A stretch of 26,052 nt of DNA from an uncultured Methanosarcinales archaeon (GTDB taxonomy: Archaea; Nanobdellota; Nanobdellia; Woesearchaeales; ARS49): NCBI GenBank assembly GCA_964571335.1, contig CAZNAM010000001.1:1-26052 (forward strand). Reading direction: 5' to 3'. The number at the start of each line of letters is the position of its first letter. Within the stretch, counting starts at the first letter, position 1. This document shows positions 264 through 8,940 of this stretch, piece by piece. A program made the position numbers and the translations under genes. The notes under the pieces were generated by a model. It did not search any database and had not been told where the DNA came from. It was given only the letters and a program-made list of their open reading frames with translations.

Positions 264-407
264 TTATTTTAAAATGTTTCCTAAAACTGTAAAAGAACGT
301 CCACAATAAACACATTTTTTGCTTTTTCCCTTTAAAAAGGGTGTTTGTGATTGATATTTCATGTTTTGCTTGCATTTTGGGCATTTTAGAAGTAATTGTT
401 TATTCAT
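264..407 (-). CDS. Small zinc-ribbon protein, 47 aa (CPKC-x19-CVYC)
   Basis: Manual translation: [47 protein letters not shown]. The ATG (407-405) overlaps the scpB TGA stop (ATGA coupling). It is below the ORF track length cut-off. Confidence 0.85.
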
Positions 408-1186
408 TTTTTCTTTGCCTTTTTTAAACCTAACAATTCTTTGACTTTTTCATCAACTTTCCTTTCTTGTTCTGGAGTTATTTCCATTCGGGGTTCTTCT
501 TTTTTTTCATTTTCTTTTTTTAGTTTATGTTTTTCTTTTTCCAATTTTTCCTTTTCATCAGAATATACTTTTAATCCTTCAACCTCTTCATTATATGGTT
601 TTAGTTCTTCTGAAAGTTGAGGTTTTGTTTCTTTTTGGACTTCGTAAACTTTTATTTCTTCTTTGCTTATTGCTTTTTCTTCATCAACTATTGTTTTAAA
701 TGCTTCTTTTACTTGTCTTGGATCTAAATTAAAATAATCGTAAAATTTTGGTGTTAATCTGATTAATTTTGTTCTTCCTTTTTTTTCTCTTGATAAAAAT
801 CCTTGTTTTTCCAATATGCTTATATGATCATATCCTTTGTTTGTCCTTATCCTTATTATTTCACTTTGCAATACAGGAGCTTTATATGCAATAACTGCTA
901 GTGTTTCTATTATTGTTTTTGGCATTTCTGTTTTTGATACTAATTTCTTTATTACAGGTATATACTGATCTTTTACTGTTAATTGCCAGCCCAGATTATC
1001 TTCTATTAGAATTATACTGCTTCCTTTTTCTTCAAGTTCTTTTTTTTGTTCTCTCAAACATTTTAATATATCTTCTTCAGTTCCTCTTGTTAATTTAATT
1101 AGTTCTTGTATGCTAATTTTTCTTGCTGCTGAGAATAATATAGATTCTATTTTATGTTTGAGATGTAATAGAGTATTTTCCTGCAT
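404..1186 (-). CDS. scpB: SMC-Scp complex subunit ScpB (segregation and condensation protein B) with charged C-terminal tail
   Basis: KIESILFSA...GWQLTVK...IETLAVIAYKAPVLQSEIIRIRTNKGYDHI..L...GFL.REKKGRTKLIRLTPKFYDYFNL are typical ScpB tandem winged-helix motifs. Confidence 0.93.
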   Translation of the reverse strand: MQENTLLHLKHKIESILFSAARKISIQELIKLTRGTEEDILKCLREQKKELEEKGSSIILIEDNLGWQLTVKDQYIPVIKKLVSKTEMPKTIIETLAVIAYKAPVLQSEIIRIRTNKGYDHISILEKQGFLSREKKGRTKLIRLTPKFYDYFNLDPRQVKEAFKTIVDEEKAISKEEIKVYEVQKETKPQLSEELKPYNEEVEGLKVYSDEKEKLEKEKHKLKKENEKKEEPRMEITPEQERKVDEKVKELLGLKKAKKK

Positions 1187-1715
1187 CTTCCTTTATCAGC
1201 TCTTTTTTAATCATAACATCAAGGAATGCTTTTATTTCTTTTGGTTCTATACCTACAAATCTGCTTATTTCTTCAGGTGTTTTTTCTCCTTCTTTTAAAA
1301 TATAATAAACAAAATTGTGTAGAATATTGATTGCATTCATATCTAATAACTGTTTTTGAACACTGGCATCTTTTATTAGTGCATCTGCTTGATGTATTTT
1401 TGCTAGTAAATCATTTAAGAATCCTGTTAAAATGTTTGCATCAAAATTTAATTTTTCAGGACTTAATATCTCTATTGAACTTGGCATGCTGTCAAAACAA
1501 AAAGCAAGTAATTCATCCATATCATTAAAATCTATTTCTATTTCAGCAAATGTTGAAAAGAATTTTCCTTGTTCTATAGGTTCTGCATATTCTATATGTT
1601 TTATTTTCTTATTTTCTTGTTGTAATTTTGCTATATATTCCTTTAAGGTATTTATTATGTGCTCTTTTGGAGCTCCTAACATTTCAATTATCGCTCTGGT
1701 TTCAATTTTATCCAT
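1152..1715 (-). CDS. Hypothetical protein, 187 aa, with probable C-terminal winged helix
   Basis: Long ORF with a TATA element (TATATAAA, 1745-1738) 22 nt upstream. The C-terminus ILKEGEKTPEEISRFVGIEPKEIKAFLDVMIKKELIKEDAGKY has a wHTH pattern. It overlaps the annotated scpB start by 35 nt. Confidence 0.8.
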   Translation of the reverse strand: MDKIETRAIIEMLGAPKEHIINTLKEYIAKLQQENKKIKHIEYAEPIEQGKFFSTFAEIEIDFNDMDELLAFCFDSMPSSIEILSPEKLNFDANILTGFLNDLLAKIHQADALIKDASVQKQLLDMNAINILHNFVYYILKEGEKTPEEISRFVGIEPKEIKAFLDVMIKKELIKEDAGKYSITSQT

Positions 1716-1849
1716 TTTTTAAGTTATTACTGCTTGTTTTATATATTTTTTTATTTCTTCTTTAAATACCTTATATACTGCAAAACAACATTAACCATTA
1801 TTGAATAGTCATAAAAGTTTTTAATGTGGTTTTTATTTAAAAAAGTATT

Positions 1850-2374
1850 ATGGGGTTGGATTTTTTAAAGAAGAAAAAGAATAGTGAAGAGCATTTACCT
1901 ATGCCTCCTCCACCTATTCCTAAACCTAAGAACTTTGTAGGAGATATTGAAGAAATTAGACCTAAAAAATCTGGAAAAGAGATTTTAGAGCAAGATTTAT
2001 CAATTCCCGAAATTAGTATGGATTCTTCTATTCCTGAAGAGCCAGAAACTTTTGAACAGCCTAATTCTGCAAAAATGACTTTTAGAGAGCATAAACCTGT
2101 TTATTTTGATGAACCAAATGATTTTCAAGAAGAAGCTCAAAGAAAAGATATTAAAAAAGGTCCTTTATTTATTTCAGTTAATGATTATGAAAAAATTGAG
2201 TTAGATATTAATAGCATGAAAAATCTTCTTGATGATGCTGAAAATAACATTCAAGAAATGAATGATGTTGTTTCTTCTGAAAATGATTTTTTAGATAAAT
2301 GGAGAGCATATTTAGAAGGTATTGAAAAAAAATTAAGTTTTGTTGATAAAATTATAGAAAACTCAGGGGAATAA
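1850..2374 (+). CDS. Hypothetical protein: basic/hydrophobic N-terminus, Pro-rich and acidic linker, C-terminal strand+coiled-coil domain
   Basis: 174-aa ORF with TATA-like TTTTTAAT at 1818-1825. The C-terminal ~65 aa align without gaps to the next gene's product. Confidence 0.85.
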   Translation: MGLDFLKKKKNSEEHLPMPPPPIPKPKNFVGDIEEIRPKKSGKEILEQDLSIPEISMDSSIPEEPETFEQPNSAKMTFREHKPVYFDEPNDFQEEAQRKDIKKGPLFISVNDYEKIELDINSMKNLLDDAENNIQEMNDVVSSENDFLDKWRAYLEGIEKKLSFVDKIIENSGE

Positions 2375-2376
2375 AA

Positions 2377-2598
2377 ATGGAAGATAAATCTAAGATTTTT
2401 GTTAAAATACAGGATCACAAGGATATCACTGACATTTTAAGTCTTTTAAAAGACAAAATAAGTCAGGCAAAAGATGTTTTAAATAAAATCAAAAATATTA
2501 AAGAAAAAGAAGAGTCTTGTGTTGCAAGGTGGGAACATAATATTTCTGAAGTTGAAGAAAAAATCAGCAACATAAATAGTTCCTTAAATAATTTATAA
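2377..2598 (+). CDS. Small coiled-coil protein (73 aa), paralog of the upstream gene's C-terminal domain
   Basis: IFVKIQDHKDI...W...EVEEKIS aligns with LFISVNDYEKI...W...GIEKKLS. It starts 2 nt after the upstream stop. Confidence 0.85.
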   Translation: MEDKSKIFVKIQDHKDITDILSLLKDKISQAKDVLNKIKNIKEKEESCVARWEHNISEVEEKISNINSSLNNL

Positions 2599-2599
2599 A

Positions 2600-2938
2600 A
2601 TGGATGATTTTTATGTTTGTATTGATGAACCTTCTGAAAAAAGAAGAGTTCTTTTGCAGTCTTCTAGAGATTTAATTACTTCTTTAAGGATGGTTGATGA
2701 TTTTATTGATTTTAAAATGCAAAAAAGAGATTTATTTAATGAGTTAAAATATATAATGGATGAAATTATTGTTTTAAACAATAAAATTTTCGGAAAACTT
2801 CCTGATTCTTCTGTTCAAGTCTCTTCTCAAATAACTAGAAACCCTTCTCAATTAAGATTTTATTCTAAAAGATCTAAATTAGATATTCTTGAAAGTGAAC
2901 TTGCAGATATTGAAAATAAGCTGAATTCTTTGGAATAA
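2600..2938 (+). CDS. Hypothetical coiled-coil protein (112 aa)
   Basis: Starts 1 nt after the previous stop. It has an FYVCIDEP strand followed by long amphipathic helices, ending in SKLDILESELADIENKLNSLE. Confidence 0.82.
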   Translation: MDDFYVCIDEPSEKRRVLLQSSRDLITSLRMVDDFIDFKMQKRDLFNELKYIMDEIIVLNNKIFGKLPDSSVQVSSQITRNPSQLRFYSKRSKLDILESELADIENKLNSLE

Positions 2939-2956
2939 TTTCATTTAAGAAAAATA

Positions 2957-3064
2957 TGCGGGAGGCAGGATTCGGACCTGCGAAGGCACTAAGCCACATG
3001 GTTTCTTACAGCTTAAGACAAGATGTCTTGAGCCATGCCCATTTGACCACTCTGGTACTCCCGC
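2957..3064 (-). tRNA. tRNA-Leu(CAA) with a 24-nt intron at canonical position 37/38; CCA not encoded
   Basis: Minus strand: acceptor GCGGGAG/CTCCCGC+A, D-arm CCA-GAGTGGTCAAA-TGG, anticodon stem CATGG/CCATG with loop CT-CAA-G|A, long variable arm GGC-TTAGT-GCC, T-arm GCAGG-TCCGAAT-CCTGC. The spliced length is 84 nt. Confidence 0.95.
3003..3026 (-). other. tRNA intron with bulge-helix-bulge (BHB) splice motif
   Basis: Intron ACATCTTGTCTTAAGCTGTAAGAA. The central helix pairs CUCA with UAAG (one C-A mismatch). The 3-nt bulges are AG|A and AA|A, and the intron hairpin is CA-t-CTT/AAG-c-TG. Confidence 0.88.
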
Positions 3065-3088
3065 GAGTAAAATACAAAAAAAAGAGAT

Positions 3089-3105
3089 CATATATAAATG
3101 CTTTT
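3089..3105 (-). promoter_or_regulatory. TATA box/BRE of the tRNA-Leu gene
   Basis: Minus-strand AAAGCA-TTTATATATG, with the TATA run ending 24-26 nt upstream of tRNA G1. Confidence 0.75.
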
Positions 3106-3156: not shown

Positions 3157-4497
3157 ATGACAATTACTTTTCGTGCAGTTGGTGGTTTTGGAGAGATTGG
3201 TAGAAATATGTGTGCTGTTAAGATAAATGATAATGTTTTTATTTTTGATATGGGACTGCACCTTCAGAATTATATTGAGATTACAGAACAGGAAAGAGAA
3301 CAGTTTGTTCCTCTTTCAGAATCTTTGCTTAAAAAAAATGATGCTATTCCTCAGGATGATATTATTTCTGATTGGTTGCCTAATGTCAGAGCAATATTGA
3401 CAACTCATGCACACTTAGATCATATGGGTGCCATCCCTTGGTTAGCTCATAAATATAATGCTCCTGTTATTTGTTCTCCTTTTTCTGCTCACATTCTTAA
3501 GAGCATCATTAGAGAGGATGAGCTTGAATTTGAAAATAGAATTATTGAATTAAAACCTTCTAAAAAAATGAAGATAGCTAAAGATGTTTCAATTGAATTT
3601 GTCAGGACAACTCATAGCACACCTCAAGCAGTTATTATTGTACTTCATACTTCTGAAGGAATAATAATGTATGGCAATGATTTTCGTCTTGATAAAAATC
3701 CCACTTTAGGAAAAGCTCCTGATTTTTCAAGATTAAAAGCATTAGGTAAAAAAGGTGTTAAACTTTTGATTGAAGATTGTTTATATTCTTGTAAGCAGGG
3801 ACATACCGGCACTGAAAAAGATGTGAAAGAAAAACTTAAGAATATTTTATTTACAGAAGGTAAAAAAAATAAAGGTTTGATTGTTACAACTTTTGGAAGT
3901 CATATTGAAAGATTGCATAATATTTCTATTATTGGTAAAAAATTAGGTAGAAAAGTTTTTTTTCTTGGTAGAAGTCTTGCAAGATATTGTTTTGCTGCTC
4001 AGGATTGTAAAATCACTAAATTTGATGGAGTTTCTATTTCAAAATTTGCTAAGCAGAGCAGACGATATCTTAGACAGATAAATAAAAGAGGTAAAGAAAA
4101 CTGTTTGCTTGTTGTTACAGGACATCAAGGTGAACCTAAAGCAAGTCTTTCAAAAATGGTTGATGGTTTGCTTCCTTATAAATTCAGCAACAAAGATGTT
4201 GTTGTTTTCAGTTCTAGTATAATTCCTGTTAAAGATAATGAAGAAAACAGAGCAATTTTAGAAAAAAAATTATTAGAGAAAGGAGTTTGTATTTATGATA
4301 ATGTTCACATTTCAGGTCATTGTTTTAAAGAAGATGTTATTGAATTCTTGAATTTGGTTAAACCACAAAATTTCATTCCTGCACATGGAACTAAAGAAAA
4401 AACAGATTGCATGATTTCTTTGATTAAAGAAAATAATATTCTTGATAAAAAGAAAGTTTATGTTGTTGTAAATGGTGATTCTGTAACTATAGATTAG
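3157..4497 (+). CDS. rnj: Ribonuclease J (metallo-beta-lactamase / beta-CASP)
   Basis: AVGGFGEIGRNM, THAHLDHMGAIP (HxHxDH), THSTP, NDFRLD, VTTFGSHIER, TGHQGEP, VFSSSIIP, HISGH and PAHG motifs. Confidence 0.93.
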   Translation: MTITFRAVGGFGEIGRNMCAVKINDNVFIFDMGLHLQNYIEITEQEREQFVPLSESLLKKNDAIPQDDIISDWLPNVRAILTTHAHLDHMGAIPWLAHKYNAPVICSPFSAHILKSIIREDELEFENRIIELKPSKKMKIAKDVSIEFVRTTHSTPQAVIIVLHTSEGIIMYGNDFRLDKNPTLGKAPDFSRLKALGKKGVKLLIEDCLYSCKQGHTGTEKDVKEKLKNILFTEGKKNKGLIVTTFGSHIERLHNISIIGKKLGRKVFFLGRSLARYCFAAQDCKITKFDGVSISKFAKQSRRYLRQINKRGKENCLLVVTGHQGEPKASLSKMVDGLLPYKFSNKDVVVFSSSIIPVKDNEENRAILEKKLLEKGVCIYDNVHISGHCFKEDVIEFLNLVKPQNFIPAHGTKEKTDCMISLIKENNILDKKKVYVVVNGDSVTID

Positions 4498-5839: not shown

Positions 5840-6358
5840 TTATTTGTTTCCGTAATAAAACATCTTCTGTATATCAACATCAGCTGAAGAATACTTTCCG
5901 CTTCTTGGCATGTCTTTTTTCTCTTCTTTTGTCTGCAAGTTTGCCTGCACTTCTTTTTCTTGTGTTTTAGTATCAAAACTTATTGGAGAACTAAATGCTT
6001 TTTTTTTCAGTTGTTCTATTTCTTGTTTTAAATTTTCTATTTTATTGTTCAAAAGATTTATTGTGCTTCTTTGTATGTCCATTTCTCGTATTAATTTTTT
6101 TTCTGCAATATCAAGCATTAATTCAAATTTTCTGTCATTCATCTCTCTTATTTCTCTATTTTCTTCTTGTGATATTTCTGGAATGATTTTTTCTTCAAAA
6201 ACCTCTGAAATTTTTTCTTCTTGAACAGGCTTTTTTTTTATTTTTTCTTCATAGAATTGTTCAGCTAATCTTGCAGCATCGTCACTTGTTTTAGCAAAGT
6301 TATGTTTTTTTAATTCACTTGCCAATGCATTTATTTTTTGTAGTTTTCCAAGCTCCAT
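5840..6358 (-). CDS. Hypothetical protein with central coiled coil and aromatic C-terminal motif
   Basis: 172-aa ORF starting 3 nt after the upstream gene's stop. It ends in PRSGKYSSADVDIQKMFYYGNK. Confidence 0.82.
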   Translation of the reverse strand: MELGKLQKINALASELKKHNFAKTSDDAARLAEQFYEEKIKKKPVQEEKISEVFEEKIIPEISQEENREIREMNDRKFELMLDIAEKKLIREMDIQRSTINLLNNKIENLKQEIEQLKKKAFSSPISFDTKTQEKEVQANLQTKEEKKDMPRSGKYSSADVDIQKMFYYGNK

Positions 6359-7537: not shown

Positions 7538-7846
7538 GTTTAACTTATTTTGTCTTCTTTTTTTAACTCTCCTCATTTTTCTTCTGTTATCTAAATGTTT
7601 GGTTGTATCAGATTTTTTTGAATGATATATTGGCTCTGTTTTTTGATAGTTTTTCACAAGTCTTTCTGAATGATATTTTTGAGCTACATATAATTTTTCT
7701 TTAAGATTTTGAACAAGAAAGATGTTGCTCGAATGAAAAGGTAACTTAATATTATGTTTACTTTTATGATTATGAACCTGAACAGGGTTTGATAAATATC
7801 TTTTTCTAACCAAATATTTATAATCAATATAGAATCCTACCACCAT
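7505..7846 (-). CDS. Hypothetical basic protein (113 aa) with Arg/Lys-rich C-terminus
   Basis: It fills an otherwise empty ~310-nt gap. TTTTTAATA (7879-7871) ends 24 nt before the ATG. Its 3' end overlaps the convergent gene by 33 nt. Confidence 0.55.
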   Translation of the reverse strand: MVVGFYIDYKYLVRKRYLSNPVQVHNHKSKHNIKLPFHSSNIFLVQNLKEKLYVAQKYHSERLVKNYQKTEPIYHSKKSDTTKHLDNRRKMRRVKKRRQNKLNSMTNTLEQRI

Positions 7847-7908
7847 AACTTAAGTTTAAAAAAATAGAAATATTAAAAAGATTTATGGTTTCTAATAAGT
7901 ATATTAAA

Positions 7909-8187
7909 TCACATTTCTTCTTCTGTATCTTCATCAGGAGCGTTTGGTACTGCTTGTTTATTTATTATCATTATATCTCCTACTGCTTTTACAAGCTGAT
8001 GAGGCACAATTACACCTTTTGCTGTTCCTAATACTCTATTCAAAAATGAATTTTTTGTTGCTTTTATTCTCCAGCTTTGTACTTTTGTTTGTGTTAATAT
8101 TGCTTCATCTACATCTCCGAAATAATCTCCTTGATCTGTGAAAACTTTCATATTAAATGTATCATTAAGTTTTTTCATTCTTAGCAT
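7909..8187 (-). CDS. PRC-barrel domain protein (CdpB-like archaeal cell-division protein candidate)
   Basis: MKVFTDQGDYFGDVDEAIL...GVIVPHQLVKAVGDIMII is a typical single PRC barrel. SD GGAGG lies 8 nt upstream. Confidence 0.9.
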   Translation of the reverse strand: MLRMKKLNDTFNMKVFTDQGDYFGDVDEAILTQTKVQSWRIKATKNSFLNRVLGTAKGVIVPHQLVKAVGDIMIINKQAVPNAPDEDTEEEM

Positions 8188-8228
8188 TTTGAATTCCTCC
8201 TTTTATGTTATTTCCTTTTTTCTTAAAG

Positions 8229-8236
8229 TATTTAAA
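8229..8236. promoter_or_regulatory. Shared bidirectional TATA element for the PRC-barrel gene (-) and the TraB operon (+)
   Basis: It reads TATTTAAA on + (23 nt before ATG 8260) and TTTAAATA on - (predicted start ~8205, just upstream of the GGAGG SD). Confidence 0.55.
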
Positions 8237-8259
8237 GATTATGGTATTCTTATATAGTT

Positions 8260-8940
8260 ATGCAGAGCATTATTTTTATTGGAACATCTCATGTTGCTAA
8301 AGATAGTGTTAAAAAGGTTAAAAAGGTAATTTCTGAGAAAAAACCAGATATTGTTGCTATTGAATTAGATAGAAACAGGCTTTTGGGTTTATTAGATAAA
8401 AAGAGTAAAAGAAAACTTTCTTTTGGAGATATCAAAAGAATTGGTTTAAAAGGCTGGCTTTTTGCTTCTATTGGTCAATGGATTCAAAAAAAAATAGGTT
8501 CTAAGATTGGGGTTTTGCCTGGTGCAGATATGCTTGCAGCTTATAATGCCGCTAAATCTGAAGGTGCAAAGATTGCTCTGGTTGATCAGGATATTGAAAA
8601 AACTCTTAAAAATTTGTCTAAAAGACTTTCTTGGAAAGAAAGATGGAATTTTGTTGTTGATTTAATAAAAGGATTTGTTTTCAAAAAAGGCATTAAGATC
8701 GATCTTTCTAAAGTTCCTGAAGATGAATTGATTGAAAAATTAATCAAAAAATTAAAGATAAGATATCCTAATATTTATGATGTTTTGATTGCTGAAAGAA
8801 ATGATGTTATTGCTAAAAATATTGCAAAATTAACTAGAAATTTTCCTGATGCAAATATTGTTGTTGTTCTTGGCGCAGGTCATGTTAAAGAAGTAAAGGA
8901 TTTGTTGAAAAAGTATTTAAAAGAGTATGATATTATTTAG
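8260..8940 (+). CDS. TraB/PrgY/GumN-family protein (soluble, no C-terminal membrane domain)
   Basis: FIGTSHV, PDIVAIELD..R, PGADMLAA, LVDQDI, LIAERND and VVVLGAGHV motifs. Confidence 0.92.
   Translation: MQSIIFIGTSHVAKDSVKKVKKVISEKKPDIVAIELDRNRLLGLLDKKSKRKLSFGDIKRIGLKGWLFASIGQWIQKKIGSKIGVLPGADMLAAYNAAKSEGAKIALVDQDIEKTLKNLSKRLSWKERWNFVVDLIKGFVFKKGIKIDLSKVPEDELIEKLIKKLKIRYPNIYDVLIAERNDVIAKNIAKLTRNFPDANIVVVLGAGHVKEVKDLLKKYLKEYDII

Follow-up and report, generated by a model that had tools for sequence, protein, structure and literature searches.

What do three small genes encode that follow one another almost without a gap in an archaeon of tiny genome, and do their products work together? This question is raised by positions 1850-2938 of a 26,052-nucleotide (nt) stretch of DNA (the window; contig CAZNAM010000001.1 of assembly GCA_964571335.1, positions 1 to 26,052, G+C ~29%) from an uncultured archaeon placed by its genome taxonomy in Woesearchaeales. 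Genomes in this class of DPANN archaea are tiny, and little of the cell biology has been worked out. A preliminary description of the locus, made from the sequence alone, had proposed a tightly coupled cassette of three related strand and coiled-coil proteins, one with a putative membrane anchor, and had compared it to SepF-type adaptors. The three open reading frames (ORFs), here called ORF1, ORF2 and ORF3 (Table 1), are real genes. Their products are members of undescribed families, and the module that they form is a lineage-specific housekeeping component of the class with Woesearchaeota, Pacearchaeota and Nanoarchaeota. The observations of the preliminary description on genes, spacing and alignment were confirmed, whereas its interpretation stood only in part, since the relatedness of ORF3 was overstated and the likeness to SepF is one of layout only.

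Paralogy of ORF1 and ORF2 and the relation of ORF3

The spacing that had been claimed, 2 nt (AA) between ORF1 and ORF2 and 1 nt (A) between ORF2 and ORF3, is borne out by direct reading of the sequence. The C-terminal part of ORF1 aligns by eye with ORF2 without gaps (residues 107-163 with 8-64), and all ten identities listed earlier were found in this alignment (F1, D6, I10, K18, A24, E38, W45, E53, K55 and S57). BLASTP of ORF1 against ORF2 gave 12 identities in 69 positions, again without gaps (E 2e-4), and hhalign of the ORF1 C-terminal family against the ORF2 family gave a probability of 98.3% over 68 columns (E 1.8e-14). ORF2 in tblastn matched the C-termini of ORF1-type proteins from other genomes (E as low as 1.9e-7), and a structural search of the ESM Atlas paired ORF1 residues 101-174 with an 80-residue Woesearchaeota cluster at a template modelling (TM) score of 0.86 by hit. 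Judged by these alignments, the C-terminal 68 residues of ORF1 and the ORF2 protein are paralogues, the similarity being well beyond chance.

ORF3 stands further apart. BLASTP detected no similarity of ORF3 to ORF1 or ORF2, while hhalign gave 45% against the ORF2 family (E 2e-4), with the N-terminal strands in register, and 2.6% against the ORF1 family. The claim that ORF3 has the same plan in a more divergent form was correct as to the plan but weak as a statement of homology. Of the "three related proteins", the ORF1 C-terminus and ORF2 are thus a homologous strand with a coiled coil, whereas ORF3 shares their plan and its homology is marginal and, on sequence, unproven. In the AlphaFold2 model of ORF3, built with 129 sequences, the mean predicted local distance difference test score (pLDDT) was 87, with a helix at residues 11-66 (pLDDT 96-99), a low-confidence linker at 67-92 and a second helix at 93-111. 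The model of ORF1, built with 48 homologues, has residues 1-109 as coil (pLDDT 54-77), followed by a single helix at 110-172 (pLDDT >95).

No known family was found to fit these proteins in Pfam, NCBIfam, PDB sequences, AlphaFold DB clusters or the ESM Atlas, and the preliminary description had assigned none. Scanned against Pfam and NCBIfam, the three proteins returned nothing beyond sub-threshold coiled-coil noise, and in a Pfam scan of 129 ORF3-family members no family recurred in more than 8, those that did recur being generic coiled-coil models. Single-sequence and profile searches of PDB sequences returned nothing below E 0.01. Foldseek with the ORF3 model against AlphaFold DB clusters reached at best E 2.4 and TM 0.24, a lone helix offering no searchable fold. 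The ESM Atlas returned unnamed archaeal clusters and nothing usable among its "named" clusters, and a word-index search with ORF2 alone returned no candidates. The named database relatives of the module proteins are all annotated "hypothetical protein".

Heptad repeats and the predicted complex

Family-averaged hydrophobicity has a sharp period of 3.5 residues that runs unbroken over 56-58 residues in ORF1, ORF2 and ORF3. The power at this period was 95, 91 and 44, respectively, against shuffle means of 7.5-9.5, and was equalled or exceeded in 0, 0 and 6 of 2000 shuffles. The heptads of ORF1 and ORF2 share one register, and an unbroken heptad repeat of matching length, as in the class of heteromeric parallel coiled coils, was found in all subunits. 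Since single helices of eight heptads cannot stand alone, the module proteins must oligomerise.

A complex of ORF1 (residues 98-174), ORF2 and ORF3 was modelled at 1:1:1, with ORF3 as the partner under test. The predicted heterotrimer reached an ipSAE of 0.58 against 0.31 for the best control, so that the heteromeric interface passes its controls but does so weakly, the verdict being "weak support". Confident contacts were predicted at a 3-4 spacing along all three helices (in ORF1 from residue 113 to 165) and also in the short strands (ORF1 105-110 and ORF3 4-11).

Distribution and gene order

The distribution of the module was followed in 301 genomes of a phylum-level sample, all of them at most of the "same class" as the window. 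The ORF3 profile matched in 275 of the 301 and the ORF2-domain profile in 278, so that the co-occurrence in relatives is strong and the module spans the class, Woesearchaeota, Pacearchaeota and Nanoarchaeota, in about nine of every ten sampled genomes. The ORF3 family comprises 208 representatives at 50% identity (E<=1e-3). Carriers with informative names are Candidatus Woesearchaeota, Pacearchaeota, Nanoarchaeota or Nanoarchaeia. Many carrier metagenome-assembled genomes (loci L033, L040, L043, L044 and others; binchicken co-assemblies) bear the title "uncultured Methanosarcinales archaeon", which seems to be a mislabel because the carriers named otherwise all belong to the groups just listed.

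The coupling of the cassette is equally well kept. Within the window's order, 72 of the 74 loci read consist of an anchor-coil gene, a coil-only gene and an ORF3-type gene, and the remaining 2 end before ORF3. The claim of a tightly coupled cassette therefore holds in order and spacing for 72/72 complete loci, in which the gaps are mostly -4 to +14 nt. In the other orders of the class, all 15 loci have a two-gene form, again with gaps of -4 to +14 nt, in which the first gene encodes an anchor-coil protein of 121-273 residues starting with MGLFSKKK and the second an ORF3-type protein. One of these 15 loci, on a single contig of 490,885 bp, is that of Nanoarchaeum equitans, which has two adjacent, unannotated genes, NEQ121 and NEQ123, with weak profile matches (E 2e-10 and 4e-7). 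Based on this adjacency and these scores, the pair is likely the two-gene form of the module in a 0.49-Mb genome; no mention of NEQ121 or NEQ123 was found in a literature search.

Origin of ORF2

The number of coil domains differs between the two forms. Of the 24 genomes sampled from the window's family, 22 have two matches to the coil-domain profile; in other orders every matching genome except one has a single match. These copy numbers are in keeping with the gene counts of the loci. In a maximum-likelihood tree of 142 coil domains, the ORF1-type domains form one clade against the ORF2-type and first-gene domains (support 99/83). Monophyly of ORF2 was not rejected by the approximately unbiased test (p-AU 0.435), and the ORF2 group is inseparable in the tree from ancestral-type first-gene domains. 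The ancestral unit is thus of two genes, an anchor-coil protein and an ORF3-type protein, and ORF2 is a lineage-specific duplicate of the coil domain. The simplest history is a duplication of this domain at the base of the window's order, after which ORF2 stayed near the ancestral sequence and the ORF1 copy diverged. The ancestral assembly would probably have held two copies of the first protein, later replaced by one ORF1 and one ORF2.

Putative anchor peptide, acidic linker and basic tail

The features claimed for the N-terminal part of ORF1, the peptide MGLDFLKKKK, the stretch PMPPPPIPKP and an acidic linker, are all present, and both motifs are conserved across ORF1-type proteins. The N-terminal pattern M-[GA]-[LI]-F-x-F-[LK]-KKK is kept in most of them and in 14/14 aligned first-gene proteins of the two-gene form. 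It is followed by a conserved LP-x-PPPP-x-PP, and P20, P21 and P22 of ORF1 are invariant or nearly so in two family alignments. The peptide resembles the N-terminus of the SepF of the same genome, MAFFSKIKEKI, and by this likeness is a putative membrane-targeting sequence. Among 62 homologues, the linker of ORF1-type proteins has a median of 100 residues (range 25-258), with Pro and D+E each at 21% and a net charge whose median is -10. The ORF1-type protein reaches 270-340 residues in some lineages of the window's order (loci L061, L069, L070, L072, L075, L085 and L087) because its proline-rich linker is much expanded.

ORF3-type proteins carry charge of the opposite sign. An "LPK" motif is conserved after their helix, and the linker that comes next has, in 62 homologues, a median of 32 residues, 24.5% K+R and a median net charge of +5, being net positive in 92% of them. 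The last 20 residues are a conserved leucine zipper, about 2.5 heptads long, and many relatives have an additional K/R-rich extension at the N-terminus. Median net charges of the whole proteins are -8 for ORF1, -5.5 for ORF2 and +6 for ORF3.

Proposed model and alternatives

With confidence evenly divided for and against, we propose that the module forms a membrane-tethered heteromeric rod, a coiled coil with about eight heptads and probably three strands, that serves as an adaptor. In its core the three helices would lie side by side, most likely parallel and in register because of the paralogy of ORF1 and ORF2 and the equal helix lengths, with the N-terminal strands pairing at one end. ORF1 would hold the rod at the cytoplasmic face of the membrane through its hydrophobic-polybasic peptide and a flexible, acidic, proline-rich tether, which has about 90 residues here and varies in relatives. 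ORF2 would act as a coil-only filler subunit. From the far end of the rod ORF3 would project its K/R-rich linker and short leucine zipper, a tail whose partner may be anionic (lipid or nucleic acid) or a further copy of the complex. The favoured role would be that of a membrane-associated adaptor that takes part in cell division, in organising the envelope or in attaching the nucleoid.

Several points weigh against this proposal. The complex score is no clear pass, and its calibration is only rough because own alignments were used: of 80 solved complexes 58 attained the mark, as did 2 of 110 mismatched pairs, and the range up to 0.60 holds only 7 of the 80 solved complexes but both of the mismatches that passed. 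The control at 0.31 was obtained with ORF1 swapped for an unrelated protein, coiled coils are easily laid side by side, and the tool reports no residue pairs, orientation or stoichiometry. The N-terminal peptide of ORF1 is short and not clearly amphipathic as a helix. Across the class no consistent functional partner gene travels with the module. At least 11 of the sampled genomes, each 92-100% complete (G211, G058, G039, G212, G230, G256, G314, G123, G189, G204 and G242), gave no match to either the coil-domain or the ORF3 profile. This double absence could reflect loss, divergence beyond detection or an assembly gap; it speaks for a co-occurrence of both proteins, and it also means that the module is not strictly universal and may not be essential everywhere. 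Sequencing runs containing this sequence were DNA runs from lake-water and other aquatic metagenomes, and RNA runs were not found.

Among other explanations, the rod might be a cell-division adaptor like SepF, ZipA or EzrA, which recruits the FtsZ ring or some other part of the divisome, or sets its spacing, via motifs of the ORF1 linker or via the ORF3 tail. The SepF-like layout, the resemblance of the ORF1 N-terminus to that of the genome's SepF and the use of FtsZ and SepF for division by this organism speak for such a role. In addition, the Dip system, composed of the GTPase DipA, the DUF2073 protein DipB and the zinc-ribbon protein DipC, is reported in DPANN only for Nanohalarchaeota (PMC13228585), leaving room for other factors in this class. 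Yet the module is unrelated to SepF in sequence, the genome already encodes a canonical SepF that has its own anchor, and in none of 30 extended loci compared was ftsZ or sepF found beside the module, so that this specific role seems unlikely. A tether from membrane to nucleoid or to RNA, in which ORF1 anchors and the K-rich linker of ORF3 and the basic N-terminal extension of many homologues bind nucleic acid, draws on the composition of these regions and on the neighbourhood in the window's order, where the module is divergent from an operon of an MJ0538-like winged helix-turn-helix (wHTH) gene, scpB and gyrA and lies near the RNase J-like gene and PCNA. That neighbourhood is not retained in other orders, which have TFE-alpha, alanyl-tRNA synthetase and M50 peptidase instead; only 64% of the linkers of the two-gene form are net positive, basic tails also bind anionic lipids, and no DNA-binding fold is present. 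We consider such a tether quite unlikely.

The weak complex score, the replaced-ORF1 control and the lack of clear homology of ORF3 to ORF1 and ORF2 would also suit separate homo-oligomeric coiled coils with separate roles, adjacent only through descent by duplication. This reading is very unlikely, for the first gene and the ORF3-type gene are neighbours throughout the 15 two-gene loci and in the majority of three-gene loci, both profiles are present or absent in largely the same genomes, the subunits are oppositely charged, and the helices are equally long with their heptads in the same register. Finally, it is extremely unlikely that the module belongs, in diverged form, to an established coiled-coil family (prefoldin, ESCRT-III/CdvA or a V-type ATPase stalk subunit, for instance). 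In favour of this reading there are weak, composition-driven matches to DASH_Duo1 (E 0.007), the TTC3 helical domain (E 8e-4) and SMC-like models (E 0.007-0.05), and the terminal helix of ORF3 may, in our own reading, loosely recall a MIT-interacting motif. These are outweighed by the Pfam and PDB searches described above and by the single long helix of each subunit, which differs both from the helix-hairpin-helix of prefoldin and from the helical hairpin of ESCRT-III.

Beyond the rod-shaped adaptor itself, a wider and rather doubtful extension is that the module is a hitherto unrecognised, class-specific cytoskeletal or tethering machine, in which a membrane-anchored three-stranded rod links the membrane to the nucleoid, the divisome or a host-contact site, replaces factors missing in reduced symbionts, and passed from two to three subunits by duplication. 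Retention in about nine-tenths of the sampled genomes and apparent survival in N. equitans make a basic, lineage-defining cell function likely. Together with the clean duplication history, this near-universality and likely survival make the module worth experimental follow-up. N. equitans grows in co-culture with Ignicoccus, and through this co-culture the localisation and interactions of NEQ121 and NEQ123 could be studied directly. The module is also a clean case of a predicted hetero-oligomer gaining a subunit by domain duplication. Should it prove only a generic scaffold, it would still yield two new families of proteins and serve to mark where the window's order parts from the rest of the class.

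Genomic context

The cassette is preceded by a candidate archaeal promoter, an A/T-rich element like a transcription factor B recognition element (BRE) and TATA box, which would fit a leaderless operon transcript. On its upstream side lie the wHTH, scpB and gyrA genes (Table 1), an arrangement found in 11 of 15 extended loci of the window's order. No scpA-like gene was seen here, so that the MJ0538-like wHTH protein could be a kleisin stand-in. The tRNA-like stretch directly 3' of ORF3 was not called by ARAGORN or by Rfam at E<=0.01. The whole neighbourhood, GyrA-ScpB-MJ0538-like, the cassette on the opposite strand, the tRNA-like stretch, the RNase J-like gene and PCNA, is conserved widely, but only within the window's order. 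In other orders the recurrent neighbours are TFE-alpha (11/15 loci, often divergent), alanyl-tRNA synthetase (9/15) and an M50 peptidase (7/15); the TFE-alpha gene of the window's genome is on a different contig. The module has housekeeping genes around it, but since these neighbourhoods are order-specific and none is class-wide, they are treated as lineage synteny and not as functional linkage. Further along the window, positions 5840-6358 on the minus strand encode a 172-residue charged, coiled-coil-like protein that relatives within the window's order conserve (tblastn E as low as 5e-23).

Table 1. Features of the cassette and its surroundings in the window, with the likely counterpart in N. 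equitans (aa, amino acids)
Feature	Position	Strand	Description
scpB	404-1186	-	upstream side of cassette
gyrA	start of gene, next to scpB	-	wHTH gene lies upstream of gyrA
wHTH gene	1152-1715	-	187 aa; PF27325 (MJ0538 family) as recorded in relatives; overlaps scpB by 35 nt
A/T-rich BRE/TATA-like element, AAAAGTTTTTAAT	1813-1825	+	candidate promoter, read from sequence; ends 24 nt 5' of ORF1 ATG
ORF1	1850-2374	+	174 aa; anchor-linker-coil subunit; from ORF list
ORF1 aa 1-10, MGLDFLKKKK	1850-1879	+	hydrophobic-polybasic N-terminal peptide; putative membrane-targeting sequence
ORF1 aa 11-102	1880-2155	+	acidic, proline-rich, disordered linker of variable length; short conserved motifs GD-x-E-x-IRP, IPE, FD-x-T
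ORF1 aa 17-26, PMPPPPIPKP	1898-1927	+	polyproline motif
ORF1 aa 103-172	2156-2365	+	short strand (PLFISV), then 8-heptad coiled-coil helix; paralogous to ORF2 by alignment
ORF2	2377-2598	+	73 aa; coil-only subunit, strand (IFVKI) and 8-heptad helix
ORF3	2600-2938	+	112 aa; third subunit
ORF3 parts			strand FYVCI aa 4-8; helix 11-66; basic linker 67-92; short leucine-zipper helix 93-111
tRNA-like stretch, G+C-rich	~2945-3090	-	directly 3' of ORF3
RNase J-like gene	3157-4497		downstream; 446 aa; RNase J-like by own reading
PCNA gene			downstream of RNase J-like gene
NEQ121/NEQ123 pair	7572-8452 of locus L099 (G092:C1)		likely two-gene form, from adjacency and weak profile scores

Comparison with known systems

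SepF (PF04472) was the first system to which the locus had been compared. As an identity it was rejected, with no Pfam match at E<=1 and hhalign probabilities of 0.6% and 0.3% against the genome's SepF. That protein is encoded on contig C20 (42.5 bits against a Pfam cut-off of 27); the module proteins are not SepF because the genome has its own SepF and FtsZ. The sepF gene (L016 1360-1752, G000) adjoins genes for small ribosomal-type proteins, and ftsZ lies at the end of contig C14, where it is incomplete. With the negative hhalign result and a genuine SepF elsewhere, the earlier analogy is therefore kept as one of layout. Both systems are small and cytoplasmic and have an N-terminal membrane-targeting peptide (putative in ORF1), a flexible linker and an oligomerising domain in which a short strand comes first and then a helix. 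In the module, however, this domain is one helix of about 60 residues and not a compact alpha/beta fold, and one or two partner subunits would be needed.

Prefoldin (PF02996, PF01920), named in the preliminary description as an example of a characterised family, had no match in the three proteins or in the 129 ORF3-family members scanned, nor did any other characterised family, and each module subunit has a single helix. The archaeal alpha/beta prefoldin heterohexamer and the module are alike in their small paralogous subunits, beta strands with long coiled-coil helices and, as predicted for the module, hetero-oligomeric state. Prefoldin has two helices flanking one or two beta hairpins, whereas the module has one N-terminal strand and one helix, with an anchor-like peptide on one subunit. 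ESCRT-III/Snf7 and CdvA were likewise rejected, as there was no Pfam match, ORF3 is one unbroken helix with no hairpin, and no beta barrel was predicted. Dip and the module are both three-gene archaeal operons with one membrane-binding component (putative in the module) and one with a long, variable disordered region (PMC13228585). The Dip identity was set aside since the three proteins contain no GTPase (Walker motifs), DUF2073 or zinc-ribbon domain.

Bacterial membrane-associated division scaffolds include ZipA, with its proline-rich or charged linker, EzrA and DivIVA, with their coiled coils, and GpsB, all of which use other kinds of anchor. There is no sequence or domain match between these and the module, and the likeness lies in membrane attachment (putative in the module) combined with a linker or coils. 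A further comparison is with Braun's lipoprotein Lpp and trimeric coiled-coil tethers of its kind. Lpp is, as is proposed for the module, a parallel coiled coil of about 55-60 residues that joins the membrane at one end to another structure at the other, and is a periplasmic, lipidated homotrimer. The module differs from Lpp in being cytoplasmic and, by prediction, heteromeric, with no lipobox and with long disordered tethers, while the length of the coil is roughly the same.

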